Below, one piece after another: positions 1 through 38,883 of a stretch of DNA of 64,000 nt (position 1 is its first letter; each line of letters opens with the position of its first letter). The position numbers and the translations under genes are program-made. Origin of the DNA: Alphaproteobacteria bacterium (GTDB lineage: Bacteria > Pseudomonadota > Alphaproteobacteria > Rickettsiales > SXRF01); the NCBI GenBank assembly GCA_025360345.1, contig JANYCJ010000137.1, positions 768 to 64,767 of the forward strand, given 5' to 3'. The notes below the pieces were generated by a model. That model searched no databases. It saw only the letters and a list, made by a program, of their open reading frames with translations, and was not told the origin of the DNA.

Positions 1-3000
1 AGCGTGAGGGTGGACGTGCGGCCTTGCCAGCTGTTTCCGCGCCCGGAGAAGCCCGACTGCTCCAGCGTATGCTTCATAGCGGCATCGGCGGTGGTGGAGA
101 ATATGGGGCCGGGATATTCCTCAGCGAGAGCATTTACGATTTTTTCGGACAGGGAGTGGCCGCGATGGGCGGGAGCTACAGCGATATAGCCGAGTTCGGC
201 GACATCGGCGGGGAAGGTAAAGCCACTGCGCTGCGCAATTTTTCCTTCATAGTCGGGGCGCGACCGCTTGATGGCGCCGATGCCGACCACTTCATTTCCC
301 TTATAGACCACGGCCACGCGCCGAGCCTTGAGCATTTCCTGCTCGACGCTGCGCATTTCTACGGTGGATTCAGCGGCGAGGAGCCGCAAAGCCTGCGGAA
401 GCGCGTCTACCACTGCGCCGGGCTCACAGACCCTTATGCTATACCCTTCCCCGATGTCGTTTGTTGCTGCCTGAACGGGTGCAGCGGCGGGCGCGGAAGC
501 CACCACATGCACGTAAGTATCTGCCACGAGGAATGTATCGGTTGCGCCCTGCATGGCCTCCAGTTGTTTGGGGGTAAAGGCGGAGCGCTCCGCGAAATAC
601 TGGTTGCGGGCGTTTTGCTTCCATGCGGGATGGACGGCGATATCCTGGCAGGTGCGGGCCAGAGCGGCCTGTGTTTCCTGCTTTTGCGCGGCGGCGGCCC
701 TTTGTTCGGCGCGCGCTGCGGACGCCATGCGCCGGGATGCCGCTTCGGCGATCATTGCATGAGCGGGCGCCTCTGCCGGCACGAAAATATAGCCAGAGGA
801 AATGACTGCGCCTGCATTTTTCAGCCTTCCCTGTTCGGGCTCCAGAAGCTCGGCACGGGGGATGCGATAGCCGTCGCTATTCCTGATCCATTTGGGATTG
901 CGCGCCGATTCGGCCAGCAACGCATTGGCGGCAACTCTGGCAAGGCCGCTCTCATTAATCATTGTGTCGAGGCGAGAGCCTTCGTTTACCACGAGGCGGC
1001 CATCTTCCTGCAGCATCACGTTATTGCCTTCTGCAAGCAGGGTATCGCGTATATCGTCTGGCAGGCTGGAGGCGCGGACATGCCAGCTATGGGTGCGCTG
1101 GTCGCGCTGCCAGTTCACTTCGCTGGCGGCGCGGGGCAGCATGGTATCAATATTACCGGCCAGAATGCGCTGGCGGTTCTGGACACTTTCAGACACCACG
1201 CGGTCCAGCGTGCTGTTTGGCTCGATGAAGGCGAAGGTGCTGGCAACGATCACGTCGCCGTTGACCCGCCGCATGGTCTGCACCTGTTGCGGCGTGAATT
1301 CTGTCAGGTTGCGGAAATAGCGGCCCTGAGCGTCGCGGTGCCAGTCGGGGAGGCCCGCCAGTTCCTGATAAACATCACTTAAGGTGGCGGGATTGATGCG
1401 CCCATCCTGGGCGGCCTGATCCTGCGCGGCGCGTTCTTCGCTGCGCCACTGGGCCATGGCCTCGCCCAGCGCCTGATGCAGGGTTGTGCCGGAGGTGACA
1501 AAGACATAGCTTGGCGTGCGCAGCAGCCCCGGATTTTCGATAACGCCCAGCGGTTGAAGGTTCAGGCTTCCGGCAGGAATATAATAATTGCCATCACGGT
1601 CACGGCTCCAGTCGCGGTGATTTTGCAGCTCGGCCAGAATACTGGCTTGGGAGGCCGTTCTTGCCTGCGGCTGTGGTTCGAGCGGGGCTTGCGGCACTGT
1701 GACCGGGCGGGGGGCGGGTGCATCGGCACCGATCATTTTTTCGGCGTGGTGCTGCAATTGTGTCGCTGCGCCGTTATATTGTATGGCCGCCCAGGATTCA
1801 TAGGACTCGCGGCGACTCAGGAAGCGCTCAAATTCCGTACGCAGCCACGGGGCGCTCAGGGATTTGGAGCGGATTTCCAGGTAGCCGGCGGTTTTTGCCG
1901 CATCCAGTATGAGGCAAGGTTGCTCGCCCGCGGCCAGATCAGCGCGCTTGCCGGGGGTGTAGTTCCCGCTAGGGTCAATGGCGCCGTGAAAGGTTGTGGT
2001 TTGGGTGCTTAGTGTTTCCAAAAGATAGGGGCCGAGTTCGCGCTTTACGAATTTTTCGCGCTCGGCTTCATCGCGGAAGCTCAGGACCATGTTGTTTTTT
2101 TGCTTATCCCCGGATATCCGAACGAATTTCAGGGCCAATTGCTGTTTCTGCGCGTGGAGGACGCGGTTGATGGTGTCCCATGAGGTGGTGGTGCGCAAGG
2201 CGGCGAGGGCGTATTCGTCTGGGGCTTCGCGGTTTACGGGCGAGACGAAGGCATCGTCGGGGTTGAGAAGCATCTGTCCGGCGAGGCGGTTAAACGTGCT
2301 GCGCCCGATCAGCCGCGGGAGGTCCTGCGCCAGAAGCAGGCGCTGGTTCAGGTAGGCGTGAACCGAGGCCTGCTCTATCTCGCCCTGCACCAGCCGGGTG
2401 CCGCCGCCAAGGGGAATGCTGCGCGGTGCCGGGCTGGCACTGCCCGTGGCGGGCGCCCAAAACGGCTGTCCGGGCGCGGGCTGGCTGAAGGGTGAGACAT
2501 AAGTGATGCCTTTGCTGCGTTCGGTGGCAAGCACGACGGAGGCGACATTGGCCATCATCACCAGATCGGGGTGCGCGTCCATGCCGCCATGGCGGACTTC
2601 GTAGCGTTTTGAGCCGTTTTCACCGACGATGCGGACGGCGTATTGCCCCTTTTCGGCCCTAGCTTCGAGCAATTTTGAAGCATAATCGCTGTGGGAGGCC
2701 CCGAAATTGCGGGTGAGGGCATTATCCGAGGGAAGGAAAAAGACCTGCGTTTCATCCAGCACCCGGATCAGACCCTGCTCTACATCGCGGGCAAATTCGT
2801 TGAGATTTCCATATTGGTCTACCAGCAGGTTTGCGCTGGCGGGCGGGGTTACGGTGACACGGCCATCGGCTATACTGGTATTGGCATTTATGTACTGGCT
2901 GATATCCTGATTATAGATACCCATATGCACATGAAAGCCGTTGCCATAGGCTGAGGGGGTAATTTTAGGCCGGAGATTGACAACCAGTCCCTGCTCCTGC

Positions 3001-3323
3001 GCCACCTGCTTAAAAATTTTCTTCAGCTTAACGGCCCATTCGCCGGCGACTACGGGGTCGGTGGTGCGCTGGGCCATTTCATACTGGCCGATGCCCGCGT
3101 CAGAGGTTTGCGAGACCAGCTTGATCCCCTGCTGCTCCGCCAGCTGCGCTACGCGGCGCTGGAAATTTTCAATGTCGGGGCCGGTGCGCTCGACCTTCTG
3201 GCCGTTTTTAAAGAGGTAATATTCCAGTTCGGGGCCGAAATAGAGATATACACCCTGCTCACGCAGCCAGGACACCATATGGCGGGTCACTGCCTGATTC
3301 TGACGTGTGGCTTCTTCGGACAT
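1..3323 (-). CDS. Large multidomain protein, 3' end cut by the window edge (at least 1107 codons). It has an N-terminal glutamine-synthetase-like catalytic (ATP-dependent amide ligase) domain, central degenerate W-x-R-D/N repeats and a C-terminal GNAT-like acetyltransferase domain.
   Basis: Absent from the ORF track because no stop codon lies inside the window. Hand translation from the ATG at 3323..3321 stays open down to position 3. The N-terminus (MSEEATRQNQ...YFGPELEYYLF...DAGIGQYEM...RPKITPSAYGNGFHVHMGIY...RYEVRHGGMDAHPDLVMMANVAS) follows the order of the glutamine synthetase catalytic motifs. The C-terminus (...AELGYIAVAPAHRGHSLSEKIVNAL...) resembles GNAT motif A. The plus-strand ORFs listed here (e.g. 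24..1382) have antisense-artefact composition. Confidence 0.75.
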   Translation of the reverse strand, partial: MSEEATRQNQAVTRHMVSWLREQGVYLYFGPELEYYLFKNGQKVERTGPDIENFQRRVAQLAEQQGIKLVSQTSDAGIGQYEMAQRTTDPVVAGEWAVKLKKIFKQVAQEQGLVVNLRPKITPSAYGNGFHVHMGIYNQDISQYINANTSIADGRVTVTPPASANLLVDQYGNLNEFARDVEQGLIRVLDETQVFFLPSDNALTRNFGASHSDYASKLLEARAEKGQYAVRIVGENGSKRYEVRHGGMDAHPDLVMMANVASVVLATERSKGITYVSPFSQPAPGQPFWAPATGSASPAPRSIPLGGGTRLVQGEIEQASVHAYLNQRLLLAQDLPRLIGRSTFNRLAGQMLLNPDDAFVSPVNREAPDEYALAALRTTTSWDTINRVLHAQKQQLALKFVRISGDKQKNNMVLSFRDEAEREKFVKRELGPYLLETLSTQTTTFHGAIDPSGNYTPGKRADLAAGEQPCLILDAAKTAGYLEIRSKSLSAPWLRTEFERFLSRRESYESWAAIQYNGAATQLQHHAEKMIGADAPAPRPVTVPQAPLEPQPQARTASQASILAELQNHRDWSRDRDGNYYIPAGSLNLQPLGVIENPGLLRTPSYVFVTSGTTLHQALGEAMAQWRSEERAAQDQAAQDGRINPATLSDVYQELAGLPDWHRDAQGRYFRNLTEFTPQQVQTMRRVNGDVIVASTFAFIEPNSTLDRVVSESVQNRQRILAGNIDTMLPRAASEVNWQRDQRTHSWHVRASSLPDDIRDTLLAEGNNVMLQEDGRLVVNEGSRLDTMINESGLARVAANALLAESARNPKWIRNSDGYRIPRAELLEPEQGRLKNAGAVISSGYIFVPAEAPAHAMIAEAASRRMASAARAEQRAAAAQKQETQAALARTCQDIAVHPAWKQNARNQYFAERSAFTPKQLEAMQGATDTFLVADTYVHVVASAPAAAPVQAATNDIGEGYSIRVCEPGAVVDALPQALRLLAAESTVEMRSVEQEMLKARRVAVVYKGNEVVGIGAIKRSRPDYEGKIAQRSGFTFPADVAELGYIAVAPAHRGHSLSEKIVNALAEEYPGPIFSTTADAAMKHTLEQSGFSGRGNSWQGRTSTLT

Positions 3324-3599: not shown

Positions 3600-5084
3600 T
3601 TAGATGTGCGCGGAGGCCAGCACGGCGCGAAGGGGGGCCAATTCGGCGGCCACGGGCTGCCATGCGTTGAGCGAATCCGCGTAAAGAGGCCTGCGAACCT
3701 GGCTGGCGCTAGCGGTGGCCACGGTGCGGCGGGTGCGGTAGAATTTCATGCATTGCTCTTCCCATGGGAGCTGGCAATAGGACAGCAGGCCGCCGATGAC
3801 AGTTTCAGGATTTTCCACAAGGTTTTCATAGCTCACATCCAGGATGCGCCCGGGCAGCACATGGTGCCAGTGCCGCATGGTCTGCTGATAGCGGCGGTAA
3901 TAGCGGCCCAGGGTGACCTGATTATAGCAATAGGGCACGCTTCCTACAAAAAGCTGGCGGAACAAAGACCAGCAATTATCCATGGGGTCGCGCACACAGT
4001 GGATGATCGGGGCATGGGGAAAAAGGATGTGAATGAGGCCAATAAGGAAAAAATTGTTCGGCGTTTTATCAACGACGATGCGACGGCCATTGCTACAAAA
4101 CGAGCTGAGATGGTTCAGGTAATACCCGGCCATCTGGTGCACCGCGTCAGCGGTGAGGCCGCTTACCCCTTGGGGAAAAGGCTGCTGTATCATTTGCGGT
4201 ACAAGGGTTGATGCCACGGTGGACATGATATCTGCTTCACCCGCGCCGAACACGGAGGGGTGGGAAGCGAGGATTTGTTCAACCAGCGTTGTGCCGGAAC
4301 GCGGCATTCCCAGGATAAAGACGGGCGATATTTCATAACGCTGCGTGTTGAGCAGCTTGTCGAACAGGGCCCCGTCAAATACCCTCTCGATTTCGGACAG
4401 GGTGGCGAAATGGCGCTTTTCATCGTAATGGGAAAGGGTGAGCTGGAGGTCGTTGCCTTCTTCGAAATATCGGAAGGCCTTCGGGATCTCGCGCTGAAAT
4501 TCATATAATTTTGCCAGCGCGAAACAGGCGTAGACTCGGTCGGCTCCCTTGCAGGCTTCGGAGCTATAGATGGTATGGAGATGGTCTATGATGGTTTGAT
4601 CCGGGGATTCGATCAGCAGGTAATTGAAGATGAGCCGGACATTATATGGGTCGCTTAACAACGATTTCCTGTAATATTTGAGCGCCTCGGGGAATGCGCC
4701 CTCGACCATGCAGCAAATACCCAGCCCCTGAAGGCTCGCCGCGTTGCCGGGGGATTTTTTGAGGGCCAGCGTATAAGCTTTTCGGGCCAGATGAAACCGG
4801 CGCAACTCAAACAAGGTGTTGGCCAGGGAGTTAAGCAATAAGGGCTGGCCGGCATACTGGCGAATCAGACCTTCCAAAACAGCTACGGGGTTTTCCGCCA
4901 GGTTTCCGAGAATACAATTCTGTATCAACTCACGGGAAACCCGGCCTGCTGGGGCAACAGAAAAGGTAGCGGATGCGACGAACTGTGACAAAGTTTTATC
5001 AACCATACTGATAGCAGCCATGCATTCTTTACCGGAGGCTTCGCCACGCGATGCAAGATTTATTGTGCCATTCCAGTACGGCAT
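3600..5084 (-). CDS. TPR-repeat-containing sulfotransferase
   Basis: 494 aa. The N-terminal half is TPR-like (…ARKAYTLALKKSPGNAASLQGLGICCMVEGAFPEALKYYRKSL…). The C-terminal half has the PAPS 5'-phosphosulfate loop PRSGTTLVEQIL and an RDPMDNCWS 3'-phosphate-binding-like motif. Confidence 0.8.
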   Translation of the reverse strand: MPYWNGTINLASRGEASGKECMAAISMVDKTLSQFVASATFSVAPAGRVSRELIQNCILGNLAENPVAVLEGLIRQYAGQPLLLNSLANTLFELRRFHLARKAYTLALKKSPGNAASLQGLGICCMVEGAFPEALKYYRKSLLSDPYNVRLIFNYLLIESPDQTIIDHLHTIYSSEACKGADRVYACFALAKLYEFQREIPKAFRYFEEGNDLQLTLSHYDEKRHFATLSEIERVFDGALFDKLLNTQRYEISPVFILGMPRSGTTLVEQILASHPSVFGAGEADIMSTVASTLVPQMIQQPFPQGVSGLTADAVHQMAGYYLNHLSSFCSNGRRIVVDKTPNNFFLIGLIHILFPHAPIIHCVRDPMDNCWSLFRQLFVGSVPYCYNQVTLGRYYRRYQQTMRHWHHVLPGRILDVSYENLVENPETVIGGLLSYCQLPWEEQCMKFYRTRRTVATASASQVRRPLYADSLNAWQPVAAELAPLRAVLASAHI

Positions 5085-5304
5085 TGCGGAGATATTGTGA
5101 ATGACTTCACTAATTTATGAGCGAAATTTAATTCTATTCGCAGATGAATATCATTAAGAATACGGGAGTTTTTACTTTTCCCGCCTTTGGCTCAAGCGCC
5201 ATTGGTTTTAGCAGGCACCATAACCTGCGCACCCTTTCGCGGGCACACGGCTATATGCGCAGCGGCGAAAAACCGGAACGTACGAGTTTCTGCATCAGGG
5301 TGGG

Positions 5305-6042
5305 CTAATAAATCGGGATTACAGCGCTCCAGCGGCCATTGTTTCTGGCATCATCCAGCGGGCTTTCGATGTCGCACGGGGCAACCCAGTGTTTCAGGTC
5401 GTAGCGGAAGATCACGATGTCGCCAATATCCTGCGCGGCGCTGGTGTCGATAATGCTGCCATCGGGCGCCTCGAAGCCGGCGCCTCCTTCGCGGTAGTCG
5501 CGGCCTTGTTTAGAGAAACCGAGGATCAGCCCCAGTTTTTGCGGCTCCAGCAGGTGATGGTGGCTGGCGAACATGCCGCCCCCGGCGGGGTATTGGAAAA
5601 TCTGGGGGCGGAACTGCTTGCCACTGGCATGGGTACCGCTTAAGGGGAGCTGCTGGGCAGTGAGGCTGTTGTAAAACCCGGTGAGGGTATGAAACAGGCC
5701 GTGCACGCCCGGTTTTATGGGCGCGGGAATGTCTTCGGGCGCGTTGAACACATAGGCGTGGAAGTAATGCAGGGTTTTCTGGTAGGCGGAGACGCCTTTT
5801 TCTATGGAGTGGTAATTCTGGCGGGCGGTCTGGCCTTCGTAGCTGATTTTTACTTCGGGTATGAGCCGGTAATAGTCGAAGACCTGCTGGCGGAGCGTGT
5901 CGATCGCAGCGGGGTGGATGCCGCCTTTGATGCAATAGACCGTGCCGTTTTCCAGCACGTCCTGCCCGATGGTTTTATCCGCGCTGCCGAGGGTGAGGGT
6001 TTCGCCTATGCCGGTGGGGGTGGTTTGGATGATTTTAAGCAT
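5305..6042 (-). CDS. Uncharacterised protein, putative double-stranded beta-helix (cupin / Fe(II)-oxygenase-like) fold; paralog A
   Basis: 245 aa. A gapless hand alignment with the 6999..7736 product gives 126/245 identical positions. The conserved block is QYPxGGGMFAxHxHxLEP...KHWVxPCD, giving an H-x-H...H spacing like a metal-binding facial triad. The fold assignment is inferred. Confidence 0.55.
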   Translation of the reverse strand: MLKIIQTTPTGIGETLTLGSADKTIGQDVLENGTVYCIKGGIHPAAIDTLRQQVFDYYRLIPEVKISYEGQTARQNYHSIEKGVSAYQKTLHYFHAYVFNAPEDIPAPIKPGVHGLFHTLTGFYNSLTAQQLPLSGTHASGKQFRPQIFQYPAGGGMFASHHHLLEPQKLGLILGFSKQGRDYREGGAGFEAPDGSIIDTSAAQDIGDIVIFRYDLKHWVAPCDIESPLDDARNNGRWSAVIPIY

Positions 6043-6053
6043 GGGCGTTTCCT

Positions 6054-6998
6054 TCAGACCCTGACAAGGTATGTGGCCTGTTCAACTGCGCGCGCGCCAA
6101 ATTCTTCTTTCTGGCTGATGAGGCCTTCGTTCAGGAACTGGCCGCCGCGCTCGTTTGAGGTGCCGAAATCGAAATAGCGCTTCTGGGCATAAATGCGGTG
6201 GAGGAGTTCGTCAAAGACGGCGTCTAGCGCGCCACCAAGCCGGCCTTCGGGTGTGCTGGCGATGTATTGGACATGGGCCACTTGCGCGGATTCGAAGATA
6301 ATGCAGCCTGCGAGCATGTCGGCTTCCTGAAATGCGGCGAAGAGGCGGATATTTTGCGGAAAAGCGACGGCGAGGGACTGCATTTCCTGAAGGCTATGGG
6401 TGGGTTTGGTTGCGAATTTTTCATCCAGCAGGTTTTCAAGCATGGCGAAAAATGCGGGATAGTCCGTTGTTTCTTTTACGGCGATGCCTGATTTGGCGGC
6501 CTTTCGGATGCCGCGCTGCCTGCGCCCGGCAAGGCCGGGGGCATGTGCCGTGTCGATGACGGCGGTGACGCTGGAGGCGTGGAGCGTGGCGTTATGGCGA
6601 AACAGGGCGTAGCGGTCTTCCTCGGCAGGGATGTGGTGGTAGATATGGGGGATGCATTTGTAGTGCAGCTCGGCAATGCCGCTTGCGTGAAGATGTTCCA
6701 CCAGCTTGCTGAACAGGGTAAGCATGGTGGTGGTTTTCATAGCGCTATCGGTGAGCCAGCCGCCAAAGGTGAGTCCCTGATGGGTATGCAGTGTGGCGCC
6801 ATCGCGGTTTGCAGGGAGCAGGGCGACGGGCGTTTGCCCACAATAGGCGATGAGGGAATGGTCCTGGAAGCGGGAAGCGTGATACTCCATAAAGTCCCGA
6901 CAGAATAGGAACAAGCCGTTTTTTGAGGTGTTTACGAACTGGTCCCACATTGCTTTACCGGTAGGGGCGTAGGGTTTGAGGAGGATATCTTCGGTCAT
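6054..6998 (-). CDS. FemAB-like / two-lobed GNAT-fold acyl- or aminoacyl-transferase
   Basis: 314 aa. The pattern MWDQFVNTSKNGLFLFCRDFMEYHASRFQDHSL...HTHQGLTFGGWL recalls the GNAT/FemAB-like proteins found in sugar-modification clusters. The assignment is from memory of the family, not from a search. The gene abuts the next gene (stop of 6999..7736 directly follows). Confidence 0.5.
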   Translation of the reverse strand: MTEDILLKPYAPTGKAMWDQFVNTSKNGLFLFCRDFMEYHASRFQDHSLIAYCGQTPVALLPANRDGATLHTHQGLTFGGWLTDSAMKTTTMLTLFSKLVEHLHASGIAELHYKCIPHIYHHIPAEEDRYALFRHNATLHASSVTAVIDTAHAPGLAGRRQRGIRKAAKSGIAVKETTDYPAFFAMLENLLDEKFATKPTHSLQEMQSLAVAFPQNIRLFAAFQEADMLAGCIIFESAQVAHVQYIASTPEGRLGGALDAVFDELLHRIYAQKRYFDFGTSNERGGQFLNEGLISQKEEFGARAVEQATYLVRV

Positions 6999-7736
6999 TT
7001 AATATACCCCCATGATGGCAACCCAGCGGCCATCTTGCGCGGCGGGGTCGAGGGGATGTTTCAGGTCGCACGGGGTGACCCAGTGTTTCTGGTCTACGCG
7101 GAAGATGAGCAGGTCGCCGATGTCATGGGTTCCGGCGGTGTCAATGATGGTACCGTCAGGGGATTCGAAGCCGGCGGCGCCTTCGTTAAAATCGCGCCCG
7201 CGTTTGGACAGGCCGAGGATGAGGCTCATGCGGAAGGGTTCCAGCGGATGGGTGTGGGCGGCGAACATACCCCCTCCCCTCGGATATTGCACCACCTGCA
7301 GGTGGAAGCGCCTGCCATCGTGATGCGGCCCGATGAGGGGGCGGGATGACTGGGTAAGGCCATTATATATAGTGGTGAGATTGGTGAAGAGCCCTTTGAC
7401 ATCGCCGTGCAGGGATTGCGGGAGGGCATCGAGATCGTCGAAGACATAGGAATGGAAGTAATGCAGGCTTTTCTGGCCGAGGGAGACACCTTTTTCGATG
7501 CCGTGGTAATTGGCTTTCCAGTTTTCGCCGCCATAGTTTTTCACGGTGTGCGGCTGGGCGGCAAAATGGCGGAAGATGCGGGTGCGCAAGCTGTCAATTT
7601 CGGTGGGTGCGAAACAGTTTTTGGCGCAATAGACCGTGCCGTTTTGCATGATATCGGCGGCGATGGTGTTTATGTCCGCAGGCAAAGTAAGGGTTGCGGT
7701 GATGGGGATGGGCGTGTTGTGGAGGGTTTTGAGCAT
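6999..7736 (-). CDS. Uncharacterised protein, putative double-stranded beta-helix fold; paralog B
   Basis: 245 aa, colinear with the 5305..6042 product (126/245 identical by hand alignment). It has the same QYPRGGGMFAAHTHPLEP...KHWVTPCD motifs. Confidence 0.55.
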   Translation of the reverse strand: MLKTLHNTPIPITATLTLPADINTIAADIMQNGTVYCAKNCFAPTEIDSLRTRIFRHFAAQPHTVKNYGGENWKANYHGIEKGVSLGQKSLHYFHSYVFDDLDALPQSLHGDVKGLFTNLTTIYNGLTQSSRPLIGPHHDGRRFHLQVVQYPRGGGMFAAHTHPLEPFRMSLILGLSKRGRDFNEGAAGFESPDGTIIDTAGTHDIGDLLIFRVDQKHWVTPCDLKHPLDPAAQDGRWVAIMGVY

Positions 7737-7739
7737 GGG

Positions 7740-8654
7740 TTATGCGCTTTCGGCGTAGAGTATGCCGGTTCCGCCGTGGTCGTTGCCGTTGTAGAACAGG
7801 TAGGTTTTTCCTTGGGCAGTAAAGACGGCGCTGTAGCACATCATGTCTGAATCAGGGCCGGAGGGGGAGGGTTGCAGCTGCATGACTGCATCTTTGCGCT
7901 GCCAGCTTTTACCATCGGGGGATTCGGCGTAGCCGAGGCGGTATTTTTTGCTGTGGGTGCGGATGGAGTAATACATCTTATATATCCCATCCTCGCGGAT
8001 GACATAAGGCCTGCCGAAGCCGAACTCGTCGCCTTCCGGCTCGAAGCAGGGAGCGCCCGCGCCCGGCCAGTTCAGGCCATCGGCGGAGGTGAGGTATTTC
8101 ATGCTGTAATTGGGCAGCTGCTTACCGGGGCCGGGGTGCCAACTGCCGCCGGCAACATACCACATGTGCCAGGTATCCCCCTCGCGCAGGACATGGGCGG
8201 CGGTGCGGAAAAACGGCTCCCGGTCGTGCCGGTCGGTGATGGGGGTGCGCTGGTGGCGGGTAAAACTGTGGCCGCCATCGGTGCTGATGGCAAGGCCGCT
8301 CAGCATAGTGTAAGGGATTCTGGTGCCGAGCTGGAAACCGGCATAATAGAGGTAAAGCTCTTTTCCATTCTGCCAGAGGGAATGGGGCACGACACCATTG
8401 TCATCAAACATGCCGGGCTCGCCGATGTCGAGCACCGGGGTGGGGCTTACGGCGATGACCTCTTTAGGGTTTTCAGCGCGCACATCGACATAGCCGATGC
8501 GGCTTATGTTCTGGTCGGCGCGGAACGCGCAATAGATGCGGATCACATCCGGGTTTAACAGGTAGGGCGTGGGCAGGGCGGCATGGGAGCGGGCCCAGCC
8601 GGTGGCGCTGTTTGCGCAGTAGATGAGGCCTTTTTTGTTCCAGCGCATAGGCAT
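7740..8654 (-). CDS. Beta-propeller glycoside-hydrolase-like protein (GH32/43/130-type fold)
   Basis: 304 aa. It is rich in W/Y/G beta-strand repeats (…GMFDDNGVVPHSLWQNGKELYLYYAGFQ…, …GDTWHMWYVAGGSW…, …DGIYKMYYSIRT…, …GKTYLFYNGND…), as in five-bladed propellers. The gene abuts both neighbours, which suggests an operon. Confidence 0.45.
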   Translation of the reverse strand: MPMRWNKKGLIYCANSATGWARSHAALPTPYLLNPDVIRIYCAFRADQNISRIGYVDVRAENPKEVIAVSPTPVLDIGEPGMFDDNGVVPHSLWQNGKELYLYYAGFQLGTRIPYTMLSGLAISTDGGHSFTRHQRTPITDRHDREPFFRTAAHVLREGDTWHMWYVAGGSWHPGPGKQLPNYSMKYLTSADGLNWPGAGAPCFEPEGDEFGFGRPYVIREDGIYKMYYSIRTHSKKYRLGYAESPDGKSWQRKDAVMQLQPSPSGPDSDMMCYSAVFTAQGKTYLFYNGNDHGGTGILYAESA

Positions 8655-9383
8655 TTACTCAGGGACATCGAAATGGGCGCGGGCATCGGCGCGATAGGCG
8701 GTGACGGGGTTGCCGCGGTACATGGCATTTGCATCCAGCGAGCGGGTGACGGCGGTGGCGATGTTCAGGAACGCATCCCTGCCGATGGTCAGGCCATCGG
8801 CCACGGTACTATTGACGCCAAGGAAGCTGTTTTGCCCAATCTGGCAGGAACCGGAGATCACGACATGGGAGGAGATGAACACATTATCGGCGATGGCGGT
8901 GTGGTGGCCCACATGGTTGCCGCTCCACAGGATGACGTTTTCGCCTAATGATACGAAGGGCTGGAGCACGTTATTTTCGAAAATAAAACAATGCCTGCCC
9001 ATGGTCACATTCGGCCAGACGAAGGCGTGGCTGCTGACATAGCTTGCCAGGGTATAACCCTGCGCGTGCGCCTTGTGCATGAGGCGGGTGCGCAGGCGGT
9101 TCAGCTGGTTGAACACGATGGCCACATACACCTCATGGGACTCGGTCGGGAAATGCAGATGCGCGTCTTCCACCGGCACTACTGGCAAACCGAAAAGCGA
9201 TGTTCTGGTCAGGTAGTCCCGCTCAACGGCAAAGCCGGAGACTTCGTATGCTGAATCGCGGGTAAAGCACTCATAGGCCACTTCTGCGAAGAGGCGGTCG
9301 CCATAGATGACAAGTTTTTTTGTTTTCGCCTGGCTGGGCAGCTGCATCCGGTCTTTTCCCGAGGTGGTTGGCGGGGCCTGCAA
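8655..9383 (-). CDS. Hexapeptide-repeat (left-handed beta-helix) sugar acyltransferase, NeuD/PglD-like
   Basis: 242 aa. The N-terminal segment is Rossmann-like (KLVIYGDRLFAEVAYE). The C-terminus has imperfect hexapeptide repeats (GENVILWSGNHVGHHTAIADNVFISSHVVISGSCQIGQNSFLGVNSTVADGLTIGRDAF). Confidence 0.8.
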   Translation of the reverse strand: MQAPPTTSGKDRMQLPSQAKTKKLVIYGDRLFAEVAYECFTRDSAYEVSGFAVERDYLTRTSLFGLPVVPVEDAHLHFPTESHEVYVAIVFNQLNRLRTRLMHKAHAQGYTLASYVSSHAFVWPNVTMGRHCFIFENNVLQPFVSLGENVILWSGNHVGHHTAIADNVFISSHVVISGSCQIGQNSFLGVNSTVADGLTIGRDAFLNIATAVTRSLDANAMYRGNPVTAYRADARAHFDVPE

Positions 9384-9553
9384 CCATGGATATCGCCAGA
9401 TTATCAGCCCCTTATCAATAGTGACAAAGACGGGGCCGCGAATCCAGCGTAAAATGGAGCGAAATGGGGCGGGACATAAAATTCATATCTTATTAATACA
9501 TTAAATTATATAAATATAAGCAGATTTCTTGCTCTTTCAGGAAGGCCCGCCGC

Positions 9554-9961
9554 TTGCCACATGCCAAACTTATTGCACTTCACAGCGTGGACCACGGGGA
9601 GATGGGCACGCTGGGGGTGGCTGAACAGGGCAAGGACATTCCCTTTGCCATCCGGCGGGTTTTTTACCTGTATGGCATGAAAAAGGGCGCGGTGCGGGGC
9701 GACCATGCGCACAAGGCACAGGAGCAGTTCATTATCTGCCTGAGCGGAAGCATTTCCCTGAATACGATTGATGCCGAGCATGAGGAACATTTTACCCTGT
9801 CGCACCCAAGGCAGGGGGTTTATCTGCCTGCCATGACATGGGTGCGGGTACAGGCCGTTTCGGTTCCGGCGATCTACATGGTTGCCGCATCGGGGCTGTA
9901 TGACGAAGCCGATTATATCCGCGATTACGCGGTCTTTAAAACCCTGACTGGGGGCGCGTAA
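9554..9961 (+). CDS. WxcM/FdtA-like cupin, putative dTDP-4-keto-6-deoxyhexose 3,4-ketoisomerase
   Basis: 135 aa with a TTG start. The motifs …GTLGVAEQGKDIPFAIRRVFYLYG…VRGDHAHK…QFIICLSGS… match the FdtA/QdtA family pattern (PF..RR.YY, RG.HAHK). Confidence 0.7.
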   Translation: MPHAKLIALHSVDHGEMGTLGVAEQGKDIPFAIRRVFYLYGMKKGAVRGDHAHKAQEQFIICLSGSISLNTIDAEHEEHFTLSHPRQGVYLPAMTWVRVQAVSVPAIYMVAASGLYDEADYIRDYAVFKTLTGGA

Positions 9962-9965
9962 CCCT

Positions 9966-11072
9966 GTGCAGATACCGCTTAACGATTTGAAGCGCCATGT
10001 TACGCCGTTGATGGCGGAGCTGATGGGTGCGTGTGAGGCGGTGGTGGCCAGCGGGCAGTATGTGCTTGGCGCGCAGGGCGAGGCGTTTGAAGTGGCATTT
10101 GCGGCGTATTGCGGGGTGGCGCACTGCGCGGGCGTGGCCAACGGGACGGAGGCGCTGGAGCTTGCCGTGACCGCAGCTGGCTGCGGCGCGGGCGACGATA
10201 TTGTGACCGTGGCCAATGCCGGGGGGTATGCCAGCGCCGCTATTTTGCACGCGGGGGCCACACCGGTGTATGCGGATATCGACCCGCTGAGTTTTGTCAT
10301 GACGGCGGAGCATTTTCTTCAGGCGCGGACAGCAGCCACCAAGGCGGTGATTGTGACCCACCTTTACGGGCTGATGGCGGACATGCCTGCCATTTGCGAG
10401 GCGGCGGGGCGCTACGGCATCACGGTGATTGAAGACTGCGCGCAAGCGCACGGGGCAAGCCGGGACGGGCGCAAGGCCGGAAGCTGGGGGGCAATGGGCT
10501 GTTTCAGTTTTTATCCCACTAAAAACCTTGGCGCGCTGGGGGATGCGGGCTGCGTGGTGACGCGGGATGCACCGCTGGCGGCGCGGATCAAGAGCTTACG
10601 GCAGCATGGCTGGGGAGAAAAATATATTGTACCGCGTGAGGTGGGGCGCAATAGCCGCATGGACGAACTGCAGGCGGCGCTACTGCTGCGGATGCTGCCT
10701 TACCTCGACCGGTGGAATGAGGTGCGGCGAAATATTGCCCGGCGCTACCGGGAGGCGGGGATTACAGGCGTGCGTTTCCAGCAGGTTGGGCGGGAGGAAG
10801 GCTACGTCGCGCATTTATGCGTGGCTTTCAGCGAGCGCCGGGAGGAGATTATGGCGGGATTGCAGCGTGCCCAGATCGGTGCTGCGGTGCACTACCCGGT
10901 GGCGGATTACGCGCAGCCGGGCTTTCGCAAGCGCATGGGCGACGTTGCGCCCCTGCCGCATACTGAGCAGGCGCTGGGGGGTATCTTTAGCCTGCCGTGC
11001 TTCCCCGAAATGACGGATGACGACATTGAACAGGTGATCCGCGTTCTTCAACATCATGGACAGGCTTTATGA
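9966..11072 (+). CDS. DegT/DnrJ/EryC1/StrS-family PLP-dependent sugar aminotransferase
   Basis: 368 aa with a GTG start. It has the typical N-terminus IPLNDLKRH, the motifs …IEDCAQAHGA… and …FSFYPTKNLGALGDAG… (PLP lysine context). The gene overlaps the next gene by 4 nt. Confidence 0.9.
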   Translation: MQIPLNDLKRHVTPLMAELMGACEAVVASGQYVLGAQGEAFEVAFAAYCGVAHCAGVANGTEALELAVTAAGCGAGDDIVTVANAGGYASAAILHAGATPVYADIDPLSFVMTAEHFLQARTAATKAVIVTHLYGLMADMPAICEAAGRYGITVIEDCAQAHGASRDGRKAGSWGAMGCFSFYPTKNLGALGDAGCVVTRDAPLAARIKSLRQHGWGEKYIVPREVGRNSRMDELQAALLLRMLPYLDRWNEVRRNIARRYREAGITGVRFQQVGREEGYVAHLCVAFSERREEIMAGLQRAQIGAAVHYPVADYAQPGFRKRMGDVAPLPHTEQALGGIFSLPCFPEMTDDDIEQVIRVLQHHGQAL

Positions 11073-12019
11073 CCCCTCCCCTGCTCTCCATTATCGTGCC
11101 GGTTTATTATAATGCGGACTCGCTCAATGAGTTATTTGAGCGGCTGACTGCGCTTGAGAGCGAGCTTGCGGCGCGGGATGCGCGGATGGAGCTGATTTTC
11201 GTGGATGACGGCTCGGGCGACGATTCGTTCAAGGTGTTGCGCGGCCTGCAGGCGCGGAGGCCGGGAACGAAGATCATCAAGCTTACGCGCAATTTCGGCG
11301 GGGTTGCCAGCAGCTGGTCGGGCTTTCCTTACGCCACGGGCGACTGCGTGGCAGTGCTGGCGGCAGATTTACAAGACCCGCCGGAGCAGATATTGCCGAT
11401 GTTCGAGGCATGGAAAGAAGGGCACAAGCTAGTGTTTTCGCACCGGCGCACGCGGCACGACCCGTGGGTATCAAAGATGCTGGCGGGATTTTATTACCAA
11501 TTGCTCAACAGGCTGGTGGTGAAAGATTTCCCACAGGGCGGGGCGGATATGATTTTGATGGATAAATCCTATATTCCCTATGTACTGGGGGCGCAGCGGG
11601 GCGTAAATTATTCGGTGTACCTGGTGTGGCTGGGGTTTGAGGCCAAGCTGTTTCCCTATGACCGGCAGGAGCGCAAGCACGGCAAGTCGCGTTGGTCTTT
11701 CCGTAAAAAATTCCTGTATTTCCTCGATACTATCACCGGGTTTACCGCCACGCCGCTGCGGCTGATTTCACTGGTGGGGCTGGTGGTGTCGTTTATCTGC
11801 CTTGCTTACGGGATCAAGCTGATCGCATGGTCTATGATTAACGGGGTGGAGGTTCCGGGCTTTGTGACGCTGGCGGTGCTGATAAGTTTTTCGACGAGCG
11901 TGATCGTGACCATGCTCAGCATTATCGGGGAATATCTGTGGCGGATTTTCGAGATCGTGAGTAAGCACCCCAAGTCGGTGGTGGAAAAGGCCTATCTTGG
12001 GGATGGGGACGAGGGCTGA
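11069..12019 (+). CDS. Family-2 glycosyltransferase of the polyprenyl-phosphate sugar transferase type (ArnC/GtrB/Dpm1-like)
   Basis: 316 aa. Motifs: LSIIVPVYYNADSL, FVDDGSGDDS, AADLQDPPE. Two C-terminal transmembrane helices (…LISLVGLVVSFICLAYGIKLI… and …FVTLAVLISFSTSVIVTMLSII…) are typical of this subgroup. Confidence 0.85.
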   Translation: MTPPLLSIIVPVYYNADSLNELFERLTALESELAARDARMELIFVDDGSGDDSFKVLRGLQARRPGTKIIKLTRNFGGVASSWSGFPYATGDCVAVLAADLQDPPEQILPMFEAWKEGHKLVFSHRRTRHDPWVSKMLAGFYYQLLNRLVVKDFPQGGADMILMDKSYIPYVLGAQRGVNYSVYLVWLGFEAKLFPYDRQERKHGKSRWSFRKKFLYFLDTITGFTATPLRLISLVGLVVSFICLAYGIKLIAWSMINGVEVPGFVTLAVLISFSTSVIVTMLSIIGEYLWRIFEIVSKHPKSVVEKAYLGDGDEG

Positions 12020-14068
12020 TTATTCCGCCCCGCGCTCCAGCACCAGAATATTGCCGAATCGCAATGCTTCCTTATATCCTTCGAGGCGGGCTTTTTTTAC
12101 CAGCATGGCATAGCGCGGCTCGTCGTTTTTGCTGGCTATGAAGCGTGGCTGGCGGTGCAGGATGTCATCTATCTGCTCCTCGGGCGAGGTGGCCTTGCGA
12201 AGCAGCAGGGAGTTTTGCTTGTCCAGCAGCAGCGCGCGTGGGAAGACATGCAGGGTGACGATGGGGCTCTTCATATAATAAGGCAGGAGCGGCAGGTCGT
12301 AGGTAAATACAGGCTGCCCCCCGCCTCCCTGAAGCAGCATGAACTCGCTCAGCTTATAGACGCCGTCATGCTGCAGGGGCAGGTTATTATTCCATTTGGC
12401 GGCGAGCTCGAAGCCGCTCAGTGTATTGTCGCGGATATTATAAAGGGCGAATACCGTGACTGCGGCGACCAGAAGGGCGGTTATACGCCGGGTCATGAGC
12501 ACGGAGACGGCCGCGCCGAGCAGGATGGAAAAGGGCACGATCATTTGCAGCAGGTAATGCTCATGCTGGTAGACAAGGATGAAAGTGGCGCAGAAAACGC
12601 CCACGGTGATGACGAGAAGCTCCAGCATCTGGCGGCGCATGGGGCAATCGCGCCGCCCCAGCTGCACGGCGGCGGCCAGCAGCAATGCCAGCGGCAGCGC
12701 CCAGATGCGCCCGATTTCCGCGGCAAAGCGCGTGGCGGAGATGAGGTATTGGGAGGCGAGCGAAGGCAGGTTTTGCGATGCCACCTCCACCCCGGAGTCC
12801 GAAAAACCGGCAAAGGGGGCGAGCACCATGCCGTTTACCAAGGTGCGCACGTGGCCGATAGAGGCATATAAAGCGAATAGCACTATATAAGGAATAAGCG
12901 TGCCGCTGCCCAGCCAGAGGATGGGTTTTATACGGGCAGTGAGGGTTGGGGCTTTGCGCAGGAAAAGGACGAGGGCGAGGAAAGGCAATGCCACGATGAG
13001 GTTGGTACGGGTCAGGGTGGCGCAGGCGGCGAAAAGGCCTGCCAGGAGCATATCGCGGCTGGTTGCAGCTGGCTTCAGGGCGAAGTATAGCATCAGCGCT
13101 AAGGGGAGGCTGGCGGCCAGTTCGGTGAAGATGAAAGTGTTACCGTGGTCAAAGGTATAAGCAGGCACGCTGAAGGCGAGCAGGCCGAATGCGGCGCTGG
13201 CTATGCCCGCATAAGGCAATGCCATGTTCTTTCCAATACGGTAGAGCACGTAGCTGGTGAAACCCAGATAGAATGCCATCATCAGGCGGACACCCGGCAG
13301 GGAAGAGGCGAAGAGCTCGAAAAAGGCATAAATTACATTCACCAGCGGGGGCTTGTTCTCGAAAGTAGCAAGGTAGGGCCAGTTGCCCTGCAGCAGGTCA
13401 CGCCCTAGCAGAAGGAACGCGCCCTCATCGCCAGAGGCCCATTCACATAAATATGGCAGGCGCAGCACAACAGAAAAAAACAGGCACAGCGCAAGCACAG
13501 CATGATCGCGGCTGATGCGGGGGCGGTAGCGCAGGGCCAGCCCCCCGGCCACGCACAGCAGGCCGGATAGCAGGATGGCCGTTGTTTGCAGGCGGCCGGG
13601 AAGATGGGCGGCAACCGGTTCAAAGCGGAGGCCATAATAGGCGCCGCCGTTATCATCAATTTCAATATGGATCTTGTTGCTGCCTACATTCAGCACAGAC
13701 CGCAGCTCCACGATGAAGCCTTCCTTGTCGCATTTGTTGACATCTGCGGGGATGTTGAAATCGGCGCTGTTTACGCGCAGCACGGTAACGCAGTCATCGG
13801 GAATGACCTGAAATCGCGCCCGCTCACCCTTGTTGTAAAACAGGGTGATGTTAAAGCTGTAATGCCCTTTCTCTTTCACCTCGTTATGGATGTAGGGCAG
13901 CGAGGCCTCGACGGGGAAGCGATAGGTGTCGCCGGATACGACGACCTTGCCGATCGTGGGGATAAGGGATTGTGCATATACCGCCCACAGCCAAAATCCC
14001 AGCCAGAGGGCCGCGCCGAATGCGCAAAGGAGTGTGGATGGCTTTGTGGTATGGCGGAAACCGCGCAT
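12020..14068 (-). CDS. GT-C-type polytopic membrane glycosyltransferase (ArnT/PMT-like) with an extra N-terminal periplasmic domain
   Basis: 682 aa. It has an N-terminal anchor helix, a soluble segment of about 125 aa, then many hydrophobic helices and a C-terminal soluble domain. The gene is convergent with and directly abuts the GT2 gene. The family call rests on topology and context rather than on a strict motif. Confidence 0.6.
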   Translation of the reverse strand: MRGFRHTTKPSTLLCAFGAALWLGFWLWAVYAQSLIPTIGKVVVSGDTYRFPVEASLPYIHNEVKEKGHYSFNITLFYNKGERARFQVIPDDCVTVLRVNSADFNIPADVNKCDKEGFIVELRSVLNVGSNKIHIEIDDNGGAYYGLRFEPVAAHLPGRLQTTAILLSGLLCVAGGLALRYRPRISRDHAVLALCLFFSVVLRLPYLCEWASGDEGAFLLLGRDLLQGNWPYLATFENKPPLVNVIYAFFELFASSLPGVRLMMAFYLGFTSYVLYRIGKNMALPYAGIASAAFGLLAFSVPAYTFDHGNTFIFTELAASLPLALMLYFALKPAATSRDMLLAGLFAACATLTRTNLIVALPFLALVLFLRKAPTLTARIKPILWLGSGTLIPYIVLFALYASIGHVRTLVNGMVLAPFAGFSDSGVEVASQNLPSLASQYLISATRFAAEIGRIWALPLALLLAAAVQLGRRDCPMRRQMLELLVITVGVFCATFILVYQHEHYLLQMIVPFSILLGAAVSVLMTRRITALLVAAVTVFALYNIRDNTLSGFELAAKWNNNLPLQHDGVYKLSEFMLLQGGGGQPVFTYDLPLLPYYMKSPIVTLHVFPRALLLDKQNSLLLRKATSPEEQIDDILHRQPRFIASKNDEPRYAMLVKKARLEGYKEALRFGNILVLERGAE

Positions 14069-22257: not shown

Positions 22258-22757
22258 CCCTCTTTTGCCGCTTTAAGGGCTGCTTCCGCCCGGACGAGAC
22301 CGATCTGGTCAATATTACCTTTGCTATCCACCAGCTGGTTTGCAGTAACGGCGCCGACAAGGGCGGCCACTTCGCGCTTTACTTTTTCGACATCGGTGGT
22401 GAGTTCGCTTACTGTGGCGCCGCCCCCTCCCCCGCTTTTCGGCGGTGGGGGTGGTGGCGGAGGCGGTGGCAGCGGGGCCGCGTTTTTATCCCCGGGTTTC
22501 GCGGGCTGGCCAGACGGGGGCTGTGCACGCGTGGCGGGAGTGCCTGCGGTTGCTGGGGAGAGAGTTTGCGCATCGGCTATAGATTGCGCGGGGGCCGTAA
22601 GATCCAGCTGCACAGCGGGGCCATGGGTGTCGCCCGTGGGTGCGGAGGCGGCGGGCGGGACGGTGGCGGCCTGTTTGGCGGCGGCTTCTTCAAGTTGCTG
22701 CAGGAGCGCGGTGGCTGCCTGGGTGGTGAGAGTGGTGGGTGGTGTGATACTGCTCAT
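22254..22757 (-). CDS. Hypothetical Ala/Pro/Thr-rich protein with poly-Pro and poly-Gly tracts and a helical C-terminal domain
   Basis: 167 aa. The sequence …NAAPLPPPPPPPPPPKSGGGGGATVSELTTDVEKVKREVAALVGAV… has an AAAGG element about 10 nt upstream of the ATG. The opposite-strand ORF 22321..22788 looks like an artefact. No family was recognised. Confidence 0.45.
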   Translation of the reverse strand: MSSITPPTTLTTQAATALLQQLEEAAAKQAATVPPAASAPTGDTHGPAVQLDLTAPAQSIADAQTLSPATAGTPATRAQPPSGQPAKPGDKNAAPLPPPPPPPPPPKSGGGGGATVSELTTDVEKVKREVAALVGAVTANQLVDSKGNIDQIGLVRAEAALKAAKEG

Positions 22758-22890
22758 AATGAGGGCCTTTGTGATTGCTACCTGCTGACCTTATTACAAC
22801 GTATAGGGGTGCAAAAAACTTACGCTATTGCAGCAAAAAAAATCTCCATCCGTTTAAATGTGCAAGATATGGCTATGATATTTCATTTTA

Positions 22891-25849: not shown

Positions 25850-25858
25850 GGCTGCACC

Positions 25859-29275: not shown

Positions 29276-29384
29276 GCTTTTTTTCCGTATTTAGTGATAC
29301 CGATGTTCGCACAGCCCCGTTAAAAGCTGCTTAACCAGCCCATAAAGGGCTTACGGGTATAAAAAAGCAATAAAGATTACCTGT

Positions 29385-29422
29385 AAAATTTATTTAATTT
29401 AAAGGGAAAGCGGCATTTTCCC
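29385..29422 (-). terminator. Candidate rho-independent terminator downstream of 29458..29955
   Basis: The minus-strand transcript would read GGGAAA-ATGCCGC-TTTCCC followed by TTTAAATTAAATAAATTTT. That is a 6-bp stem with a U/A-rich tail. Confidence 0.45.
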
Positions 29423-29457
29423 ACTATGAAACAGGGGCGGCTTTCTCCCGGAAAGCA

Positions 29458-29955: not shown

Positions 29956-30055
29956 GGCATTACCATAAAACTGATTGAATCTGGTTTTGGCCTAGCATAT
30001 TGCACTCTTTGCTGCAAAATGCCACCAGTGGTCTGGTAGGCTGTATGATTATATT

Positions 30056-30214: not shown

Positions 30215-30245
30215 CTCATCTCCCGTGGTTGTTAAAAGGGTTTCA

Positions 30246-30686: not shown

Positions 30687-30704
30687 AGTAAAGTTATATG
30701 CATT

Positions 30705-38882: not shown

Positions 38883-38883
38883 A

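Follow-up and report, generated by a model that had tools for sequence, protein, structure and literature searches.

A conserved LbH-propeller-Fem gene trio within a candidate lipid-carrier cassette for a tailored 3-amino-3,6-dideoxyhexose in an alphaproteobacterium

The locus considered here lies at positions 3,600–14,068 of a 64,000-nucleotide stretch of DNA (the window) from contig JANYCJ010000137.1 of an alphaproteobacterium (Rickettsiales, SXRF01; assembly GCA_025360345.1, positions 768–64,767, forward strand). It holds ten genes, which encode a predicted route to a 3-amino-3,6-dideoxyhexose, a set of putative tailoring enzymes, and candidates for transfer of the sugar via a lipid carrier (Table 1). 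Five minus-strand genes, from the left-handed β-helix (LbH) protein to oxygenase paralog A, are closely packed with gaps of 0–11 nt, and a sulfotransferase gene is separated from this operon by 220 nt. On the plus strand the open reading frames (ORFs) of the DegT aminotransferase and of a family 2 glycosyltransferase (GT2) overlap by 4 nt, which implies translational coupling of the GT2 to DegT, and the ORF of a 682-residue membrane protein is convergent to the GT2 gene with zero spacer. An earlier note on this DNA, made without database searches, had given the same ten positions, which match the ORF coordinates exactly, and had described the overlap, the convergent ORF, and the 220-nt gap correctly. 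Nine of its domain assignments (FdtA, DegT, GT2, LbH, propeller, Fem-like, two DSBH-like proteins, and tetratricopeptide repeat (TPR)-sulfotransferase) hold in Pfam, NCBIfam, and structure-model comparisons; the 682-residue protein is discussed below. There is no unassigned coding space left between 3600 and 14225. The probable LbH start is placed where the alignment with homologs begins, and the LbH annotation in L001 is 230 residues long (L and P numbers denote compared loci from other genomes or metagenomes and homologous proteins, respectively). A promoter and terminator scan gave match counts no better than shuffled sequence; the divergent intergenic region contains two promoter-like matches on the minus strand, a number not above that in shuffled sequence.

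Table 1. Genes and features of the locus, with positions in the window
Feature	Position	Strand	Basis and remarks
TPR-sulfotransferase, cytoplasmic, 3'-phosphoadenosine 5'-phosphosulfate (PAPS) type	3600..5084	-	Sulfotransfer_3 and TPR; membership of the system doubtful
2-oxoglutarate (2OG)/Fe(II)-oxygenase-fold protein, paralog A, 245 aa	5305..6042	-	Predicted fold, conserved His residues
Fem-like double-GNAT transferase, 314 aa	6054..6998	-	Acetyltransf_6, TIGR03019
2OG/Fe(II)-oxygenase-fold protein, paralog B, 245 aa	6999..7736	-	51% identity to paralog A
Five-bladed β-propeller, GH130/GH43/GH32/GH137 fold, 304 aa	7740..8654	-	Profile and predicted structure
LbH acetyltransferase, NeuD/PglD/PerB/VioB type	8655..9383	-	TIGR03570; probable start at ATG 9347
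Divergent intergenic region, right end AT-rich	9384..9553	.	Presumed promoters of both operons
FdtA/QdtA-type 3,4-ketoisomerase for deoxythymidine diphosphate (dTDP)-4-keto-6-deoxyhexose	9554..9961	+	PF05523
Pyridoxal phosphate-dependent sugar aminotransferase, C-3 type (DegT)	9966..11072	+	DegT model, nearest solved structures
Polyprenyl-phosphate GT2, ArnC/GtrB/PgfS/DPMS type	11069..12019	+	PgfS and ArnC alignment, motifs, transmembrane (TM) hairpin
Polytopic membrane protein, candidate fold-C glycosyltransferase (GT-C), 682 aa	12020..14068	-	Topology, homologs

The first two plus-strand genes are ordinary members of known families. The FdtA ORF, which encodes a cupin, matches Pfam PF05523 (136 bits, 7.9e-40) and carries RGDHAHK, the His-x-His motif of 3,4-ketoisomerases. 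The DegT ORF matches the Pfam DegT model (308 bits, 1e-91), and a sequence search of the PDB gives DesV (2oga, 1.6e-67), QdtB (3frk, 2.3e-66), and WbpE (6e-58) as its nearest named solved structures; these C-3 aminotransferases outscore the C-4 enzymes ArnB and PerA. By homology, isomerase and C-3 aminotransferase would together yield a dTDP-3-amino-3,6-dideoxyhexose, although homology does not tell whether the isomerase product has the gluco or the galacto configuration. Both enzymes are clear homologs of those in the Fdt and Qdt pathways to dTDP-Fuc3NAc and dTDP-Qui3NAc.

Comparison of gene neighbourhoods places the LbH, propeller, and Fem-like genes in the core of the same pathway. Among close relatives, chosen by oxygenase homology (48–67% identity), FdtA-DegT-GT2 lies opposite (methyltransferase)-LbH-propeller-Fem-oxygenase in L003, L004, L005, L151, and L152, and L006 and L153 contain parts of the cassette only. 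The earlier note had staked its reading beforehand on the two divergent operons occurring together in other genomes, and in these five further loci they do, with two partial cases. The flanks of the cassette are fully different among the window, L003, L005, L151, and L152. In L005 (JGI Ga0574471_47790) the cassette sits between an integrase fragment with a helix-turn-helix gene and a Hachiman-type pair (HamA and a DEAD/ResIII helicase), which suggests that it is carried there on a genomic island.

A broader, propeller-based sample comprised 80 metagenome loci, 27 of them flanked by 3 kb or more to the left and to the right. LbH, Fem, FdtA, and DegT are all present in 24 of these 27 well-flanked loci; of 61 informative loci, 45 have LbH directly upstream of the propeller, and 47 of 51 have Fem downstream of it. 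The arrangement is FdtA-LbH-propeller-Fem-methyltransferase-DegT-GT2 in Geoglobus acetivorans and methyltransferase-LbH-propeller-Fem-FdtA-DegT in Nostoc, and a 3.6-Mb contig (L067) carries the cassette set plus GtrA and GT2. The core cassette is also found on the megaplasmid of Ruegeria sp. TM1040 (L149, NC_008043.1, 445.5–452.5 kb), where the trio (TM1040_RS02555, LbH; RS02550, propeller, annotated as hypothetical; RS02545, GNAT/Fem) faces GT2-DegT-FdtA (RS19680, RS02535, and RS02530) and is adjoined by a TPR-GT41 (OGT-like) gene, RS02560. Ruegeria sp. TM1040 is a roseobacter in culture whose megaplasmid has been sequenced completely, and is a possible organism for functional tests. LbH-propeller-Fem is linked to FdtA and DegT as tightly as these two are to one another; it is conserved as a trio and is part of the core of the 3-amino-sugar pathway, not a locus-specific accessory; the description of the minus-strand operon in the earlier note as an unassignable accessory is superseded in this respect. 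A nucleotide-level search with a low-GC trio (L125) found no match in 5,426 complete E. coli genomes, which is a weak test.

LbH enzymes of the FdtC/QdtC type acetylate 3-amino sugars, and the earlier note had presumed an acylated 3-amino-3,6-dideoxyhexose. The LbH protein of the window matches TIGR03570 (NeuD/PglB/VioB) end to end (160.3 bits) as well as Pfam Hexapep, and its closest PDB entries are PerB, PglD, and VioB; the QdtC match (2.7e-7) is confined to the hexapeptide repeats. From these matches the protein is of PglD/PerB/VioB architecture and not an FdtC/QdtC-type N-acetyltransferase, in contrast to the enzyme of the Fdt and Qdt pathways, in which the propeller and Fem-like partners also have no counterpart. 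In the classification of the Holden laboratory, the solved PglD, PerB, and VioB enzymes are not known to act on C-3 amines. A simple acylation of Fuc3N by LbH therefore does not suggest itself as the first reading.

The propeller has more than 2000 homologs, with ~50% identity across Gemmataceae, cyanobacteria, Geoglobus, and Bathyarchaeota. Its AlphaFold2 model (pLDDT 93.3) has five blades, and Foldseek aligns it to GH137 BT_0996 and GH130 phosphorylases with TM-scores of 0.73–0.76, and also to GH43 and GH32 enzymes; a profile search against the PDB returns GH130 β-1,2-mannoside phosphorylases at 1e-14. The protein lies below every glycoside hydrolase (GH) family threshold (GH43, 23.7 versus 32.2 bits; BNR_2, 21.5 versus 31.4 bits) and scores 37 against the GH130 equivalog, for which the cut-off is 450. 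The matches of its homologs are scattered over GH32N, BNR_2, GH43, GH130, and DUF4185. Many Arg and Asp residues are invariant and would suit an anionic nucleotide-sugar substrate. A glutaminyl-cyclase-type role, giving a pyroglutamyl substituent, was considered and dropped, no cyclase being present in the top 50 structural matches.

FemX acts on a nucleotide-linked acceptor; we know of no Fem-type enzyme that acts on a dTDP-sugar. The Fem-like protein of the trio matches Pfam Acetyltransf_6 (2.7e-9) and aligns with TIGR03019 (FemAB-type) over residues 17–288, scoring 36 bits where the cut-off is 260. Acetyltransf_6 is matched by 26 of 30 orthologs and FemAB (PF02388) by nine of the 30 (best 9.5e-8), and there is a weak PDB match (5e-4) to the aminoacyl-tRNA-dependent peptide synthase 9wqy. 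The protein has the size of a double GNAT and an invariant lysine near the C terminus; its similarity to the Fem superfamily is remote (E ~1e-9 to family models), and the use of tRNA here is a prediction. This lysine, K297, lies within GLxxxKExFGA, roughly where the catalytic Lys305 of FemX and Lys329 of DhpH, likewise near the C terminus, are located (PMC12945691). These features point to a possible aminoacyl-tRNA-dependent N-aminoacyl transferase. During the biosynthesis of BD-12, the Fem-like, Gly-tRNA-dependent enzyme Orf11 adds glycine to an amino sugar (PMC12945691).

Around this core the cassette varies. An ArnC-like GT2 is present in 13 of 83 propeller loci (five of the 27 well-flanked ones), and the 245-residue oxygenase is a rarer add-on (three of 27). 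Other variable parts are a class-I methyltransferase, TylF-like methyltransferases, TPR-GT61, and large polytopic membrane proteins. In the unrelated metagenome loci L071, L075, L086, L104, and L127 a PhyH dioxygenase (~276 residues) and an FkbM methyltransferase (~390 residues) are inserted as a pair between propeller and Fem, and in other loci a TylF-like methyltransferase or TPR-GT61 occupies the same insertion site. The PhyH, FkbM, and TylF inserts inside the trio suggest a tailorable substituent; the cassette seems to serve as a platform for hydroxylation and methylation. The genome of the window does not have the cassette methyltransferase of its relatives and has a second oxygenase and the sulfotransferase. 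That methyltransferase gave no PDB match at E ≤ 0.01, and its assignment as a TylM1/DesVI-type sugar N,N-dimethyltransferase, as in a mycaminose-like pathway, was dropped for this reason. Enzymes with TPR repeats are found repeatedly as neighbours of the cassette: Ruegeria and Nostoc have a TPR-GT41, L073 a TPR-GT61, and the window the TPR-sulfotransferase.

Neither of the two 245-residue paralogs has a Pfam match or a PDB sequence match. A model of the oxygenase built by AlphaFold2 with 16 homologs (pLDDT 93.9) is matched by Foldseek to prolyl-4-hydroxylase, PHD, FtmOx1, and other 2OG oxygenases (probability 1.0, TM-score ~0.5–0.6). On the strength of this model the proteins have the double-stranded β-helix (DSBH) fold of Fe(II)/2OG oxygenases, in line with the term DSBH-like used in the earlier note. 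H161, H163, and H218 are invariant and R237 is nearly so. In a larger sample of 128 relatives, 114 have His and 14 have Asp at position 163, as would be expected if the residue occupies the site of the facial-triad carboxylate. The predicted site is thus His-x-His...His plus Arg, a three-His variant that is unusual for the superfamily. A full hidden Markov model search of 1.84 billion representatives returned 306 cluster representatives at E ≤ 1e-10; the family is small and unmodelled in family databases, with a single distant relative, P0016, matching Pfam 2OG-FeII_Oxy_3. Paralog A is 67% identical to the L003 copy and is the ortholog of the single copy in relatives, whereas paralog B is an extra copy specific to this genome.

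Distant oxygenase homologs (30–38% identity) are found mostly in Spirosoma and other Cytophagales (L007–L064, including Fibrella), at about the 8.7–10.7 kb position, and a distant propeller homolog (~35% identity) lies directly upstream of a distant oxygenase (~33%) in 48 of 55 of these loci. Propeller and oxygenase thus seem to be a module of their own. L007, the one Cytophagales locus annotated in detail, encodes two epimerase/dehydratases, a weak GT22-like membrane protein, an ArnC-like GT2, an AsnB amidotransferase, a TauD oxygenase, and an aldo-keto reductase. In an alphaproteobacterial metagenome-assembled genome (L038, JAPKDV010000010.1, 4–17.5 kb), oxygenase, propeller, and LbH homologs lie inside a NeuB-type nonulosonate cluster with NeuB, a CMP-transferase, two DegT proteins, WbqC, KAS III, an AMP-ligase, and a GNAT, and the tailoring proteins may be reused there on a different amino sugar.

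The sulfotransferase matches Sulfotransfer_3 (161 bits, 7e-47) and, weakly, NoeE; it contains TPR repeats and PRSGTT, the 5'-PSB (PAPS) motif, and has no N-terminal TM segment. It had been proposed as a partner of the minus-strand operon, but the comparison with other loci given below leaves its membership of the cassette unsupported and doubtful.

The lipid-carrier step would begin with the GT2, which aligns with PgfS (2e-51) and ArnC (6e-40) over ~300 of its 316 residues, carries the motifs FVDDGSGD, ADLQDPPE, and DxD, and has a C-terminal TM hairpin at ~222–290. Judged by these features it is of the ArnC/GtrB/DPMS type; with scores far under the NCBI equivalog cut-offs, it is no ortholog of the named enzymes. 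Its identity to the cassette GT2 is 71% in L003 and 64% in L005. The 682-residue protein has an N-terminal TM segment, a soluble domain of ~130 residues, and ~10 further TM segments, and it ends in a soluble domain at the C terminus. Database searches gave no more than three relatives. One of them, the fragment P0018 (44% identity), passes the PMT_2 threshold (31.6 bits versus 26.1); the PMT_2 match of another homolog, P0019, is sub-threshold, and the loop motif DEGAF of the 682-residue protein extends to a common DEGAFL with P0019. L152 has a full-length homolog (42% identity over 667 residues) directly downstream of its GT2; together with P0018, this argues that the ORF is a real gene. Its assignment as a GT-C, made in the earlier note, is our best guess: topology and the PMT_2 match of a homolog speak for it, but the protein itself matches no GT-C model.

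In other loci the membrane-protein slot is filled by a second polytopic family (L003_615 and L151_610, 38% identical to each other) that is unrelated to the first; the polytopic proteins beside the GT2 in the various loci are mostly unalignable, and two families could be defined. Such swapping of the polytopic partner is the pattern known from Gtr-type systems, whose GT-C is specific for its acceptor. The relative L067 encodes GtrA adjoining its cassette GT2. The type of the GT2 and its TM hairpin, the C-3 aminotransferase, and a polytopic protein travelling with the GT2 make the lipid-carrier logic of the earlier note a reasonable one. In two loci the slot after the GT2 is occupied differently: in G. 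acetivorans (L066, CP009552.1, 12721–14355) by a soluble protein of the Phosphodiest/sulfatase superfamily (544 residues) that is not polytopic, and in L005 (1011–2510) by a protein that combines five TM segments and a weak sulfatase-like domain. These sulfatase-like proteins might reflect phospho-sugar or phosphodiester-type transfer in some variants.

Elsewhere in the window, an ORF of more than 1107 residues on the minus strand (3–3323, start at ATG 3323) runs off the window start; it has an N-terminal Gln-synt_C domain (4e-20), central recurring 'RD..G.Y' segments, and a C-terminal GNAT, an unusual architecture. The region 19522–36239 is dense in hybrid histidine kinases (CHASE3/GAF, PAS/GAF) with CheR, and 36615–39480 on the minus strand encodes a bacteriophytochrome histidine kinase (PAS_2-GAF-PHY-HisKA) with a 198-residue ORF downstream; both are unrelated to the cassette.

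We propose that the locus is a self-contained cassette for a tailored 3-amino-3,6-dideoxyhexose, delivered to an envelope acceptor by a lipid-carrier route of three-component type; we put the odds on this reading at roughly even (a probability of about 0.5). RmlA and RmlB from outside the window would supply dTDP-4-keto-6-deoxyglucose, which the FdtA-type enzyme would isomerise and the DegT enzyme aminate at C-3. The trio would then build the N-substituent: in the order we prefer, the Fem-like enzyme would aminoacylate the 3-amine, possibly from aminoacyl-tRNA, and LbH would acetylate the new α-amine of the aminoacyl residue. The two oxygenase paralogs may hydroxylate the substituent or the sugar and, more speculatively, a hydroxyl methylated in relatives may here receive a sulfate from the TPR-sulfotransferase. 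The GT2 would load the finished sugar onto polyprenyl phosphate, and after flipping it would be transferred by the candidate GT-C to an outer-face acceptor, which could be lipopolysaccharide (LPS), another glycan, or a protein. We favour Fem before LbH because solved LbH enzymes of this architecture are not known to act on C-3 amines, which leaves room for an amine added by Fem. Aminoacylation is favoured because N-acetyl-aminoacyl amides on amino sugars are frequent in nature, because Fem-type enzymes form amides, with the action of Orf11 on an amino sugar documented (PMC12945691), and because the trio has acquired oxygenase and methyltransferase inserts more than once, as would be expected for a side chain that is tailored. 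The aminoacyl or hydroxylated substituent suggested in the earlier note thus stays plausible. The window encodes a Porin_O_P (phosphate-porin family) protein, which implies a diderm host and hence LPS as a natural acceptor.

Several observations weigh against this proposal. The tRNA dependence of the Fem-like protein is a prediction, most of its orthologs match only the generic Acetyltransf_6, and the propeller has no assigned step in the pathway. The GT2 falls far below the curated equivalog cut-offs of both ArnC and PgfS. The 682-residue protein has no Pfam match (E up to 10) and no GT-C model matched it, and neither the protein nor a three-sequence profile matched PDB sequences. As the earlier note had stated, RmlA and RmlB are absent from the window ORFs of at least 180 residues scanned against Pfam, and they are presumably encoded elsewhere in the genome; nor does the window contain a flippase (GtrA, ArnE/F, or MATE), a GtrA query giving no match and no ORF of 90–180 residues having three or more TM segments. 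No sulfotransferase homolog lies beside the cassette in ~150 other loci. Finally, the Cytophagales propeller-oxygenase clusters show no FdtA, DegT, LbH, or Fem homolog and, because these pairs occur without any aminotransferase, the oxygenase, paired with the propeller, may act on the sugar itself and not on an aminoacyl group.

Alternatively, LbH might simply N-acetylate the 3-amino sugar to give Fuc3NAc or Qui3NAc. The Fem-like protein would then be a GNAT that uses acyl-CoA, or else would transfer an O-acyl or aminoacyl group at another site, and the propeller would be a glycoside-phosphorylase- or glycosyltransferase-like enzyme by which a second sugar is added or trimmed. LbH is of a bona fide nucleotide-sugar N-acetyltransferase type, the best sequence relatives of the propeller are GH130 β-1,2-mannoside phosphorylases, the Fem orthologs mostly match Acetyltransf_6 alone, and distant propeller-oxygenase pairs exist without an aminotransferase. 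We nevertheless consider this explanation unlikely, though by no means negligible: LbH is not of the FdtC/QdtC type, the propeller is under every GH family threshold, nine of the 30 Fem orthologs match FemAB, and the strict linkage of the trio with FdtA and DegT in different phyla speaks for action on one and the same nucleotide sugar and against action on a polymer.

The same machinery might instead serve a protein acceptor, by Pgf/PMT-like O-glycosylation or by modification of flagellin, pilin, or an S-layer protein. The top NCBIfam match of the GT2 is PgfS, a protein-glycosylation GT2 of S. mutans, homologs of the 682-residue protein match PMT_2, a protein mannosyltransferase-like family, TPR enzymes recur beside the cassette, and a Fuc3N-peptide is a known flagellin glycan (PMC5207245). 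These affinities keep a protein acceptor a live alternative, but an improbable one, as ArnT-like transferases of lipids and glycans also fall within PMT_2, no obvious target protein lies close to the cassette, more than 35 kb separates it from the flagellar genes of the window, and the cassette is present in Nostoc and an archaeon as well. We think it very improbable that there is no lipid carrier at all, with the GT2 an ordinary cytoplasmic dTDP-sugar glycosyltransferase and the 682-residue protein an unrelated abutting membrane protein (polymerase, ligase, or acyltransferase-like). The lack of a flippase in the window, the convergent 682-residue ORF that is not co-transcribed with the GT2 and whose product has no direct GT-C match, and the rarity of the ArnC-like GT2 (five of 27 propeller loci) would be expected in that case; however, the GT2 can be aligned with ArnC and PgfS from one end to the other and shows the TM hairpin and DLQDPPE typical of polyprenyl-phosphate GT2s, the 682-residue family follows the GT2 directly in the same operon in L152, and in L067 GtrA adjoins the cassette GT2.

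The logic of the proposed lipid-carrier cassette has precedents. Three-component periplasmic glycosylation is well described in the Gtr (GtrA/GtrB/Gtr*), Arn (ArnB/C/T/E/F), and Citrobacter pentofuranose systems (PMC11127046). The cassette shares with them a GtrB/ArnC-type GT2 beside a gene for a large, poorly conserved polytopic transferase and a flanking context that varies between genomes, and with Arn also a DegT aminotransferase coupled to the GT2. In contrast to those systems, it has no flippase gene, its GT-C is a candidate, the predicted donor is a dTDP-derived, tailored 3-amino-3,6-dideoxyhexose instead of Glc, Gal, Ara4N, or a pentofuranose, and there are five extra cytoplasmic tailoring genes. 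In Xanthomonas campestris, wxc region 3 (wxcK...wxcN) is required for the FucNAc branches of the O-antigen, which are lost in wxcK and wxcN mutants (PMC4878081). Common to that region and the present locus is a dTDP-amino-deoxyhexose aminotransferase with membrane components for branch attachment, whereas the small membrane protein WxcN has no counterpart here and, in a comparison by description only, propeller, Fem-like, oxygenase, and sulfotransferase genes are unreported in the papers on the region. WxcM, an LbH-isomerase fusion, is the namesake of the FdtA Pfam family PF05523 ('WxcM-like').

Precedents for the product are structural. The type B flagellin glycan of C. difficile is Fuc3N N-acylated with taurinyl-Ala-Gly (Fuc3N-Gly-Ala-taurine; PMC5207245), and E. 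coli O antigens contain amino acids in amide linkage, including N-acetyl-L-serine and N-acetylglycine (PMC7685785). The product proposed here would be of the same class, an aminoacyl or peptidyl amide on an amino sugar, sometimes sulfur-containing, and in the C. difficile glycan the peptidyl amide is likewise on a 3-amino-3,6-dideoxyhexose. However, the C. difficile genes (acyltransferase, D-Ala-ligase-like, and alanine-dehydrogenase-like) differ from those of this cassette, and the sulfur there is that of taurine sulfonate rather than PAPS-derived sulfate. To our knowledge, N-acetyl-aminoacyl amides on amino sugars are common but genetically unexplained, and the enzymes that install them are mostly unassigned.

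No description of this cassette was found in the literature, although coverage of subscription journals was thin, so that earlier characterisation is possible. The overall logic is already known from three-component glycosylation and wxc region 3, and the isomerase and aminotransferase are ordinary Fdt/Qdt-type enzymes. Without a described counterpart in the searchable literature are the LbH-propeller-Fem trio, the three-His oxygenase family, and their combination with a lipid-carrier GT2. A bolder version of our proposal, which we hold to be distinctly unlikely in this complete form, is that the trio represents an ancient, widespread, and hitherto undescribed pathway in bacteria and archaea for Fem-type, aminoacyl-tRNA-dependent aminoacylation of a nucleotide-activated 3-amino-3,6-dideoxyhexose, with the propeller recruited to biosynthesis. 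In the genome of the window, two three-His 2OG oxygenases together with a PAPS sulfotransferase would extend this pathway to an aminoacyl-amido sugar that is hydroxylated or sulfated and is exported while bound to polyprenyl phosphate.

If the chemistry is plain N-acetylation, the locus would be an ordinary serotype-type decoration cassette. If the proposal of a tailored, lipid-carried amino sugar is correct, it would add a new donor sugar to the repertoire of lipid-carrier three-component glycosylation, a biosynthetic role for a glycosidase-fold propeller, and a 2OG-oxygenase family, small and unmodelled, whose predicted site is His-x-His...His. The locus is moderately interesting in itself, and the widespread trio that it exposes is more so. 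Amide-linked amino acids and peptides are known structurally from O antigens and flagellin glycans, and the trio, which is found together with FdtA and DegT in hundreds of bacterial and archaeal genomes, including that of the cultured Ruegeria sp. TM1040, is a concrete and testable candidate for the chemistry that installs them.

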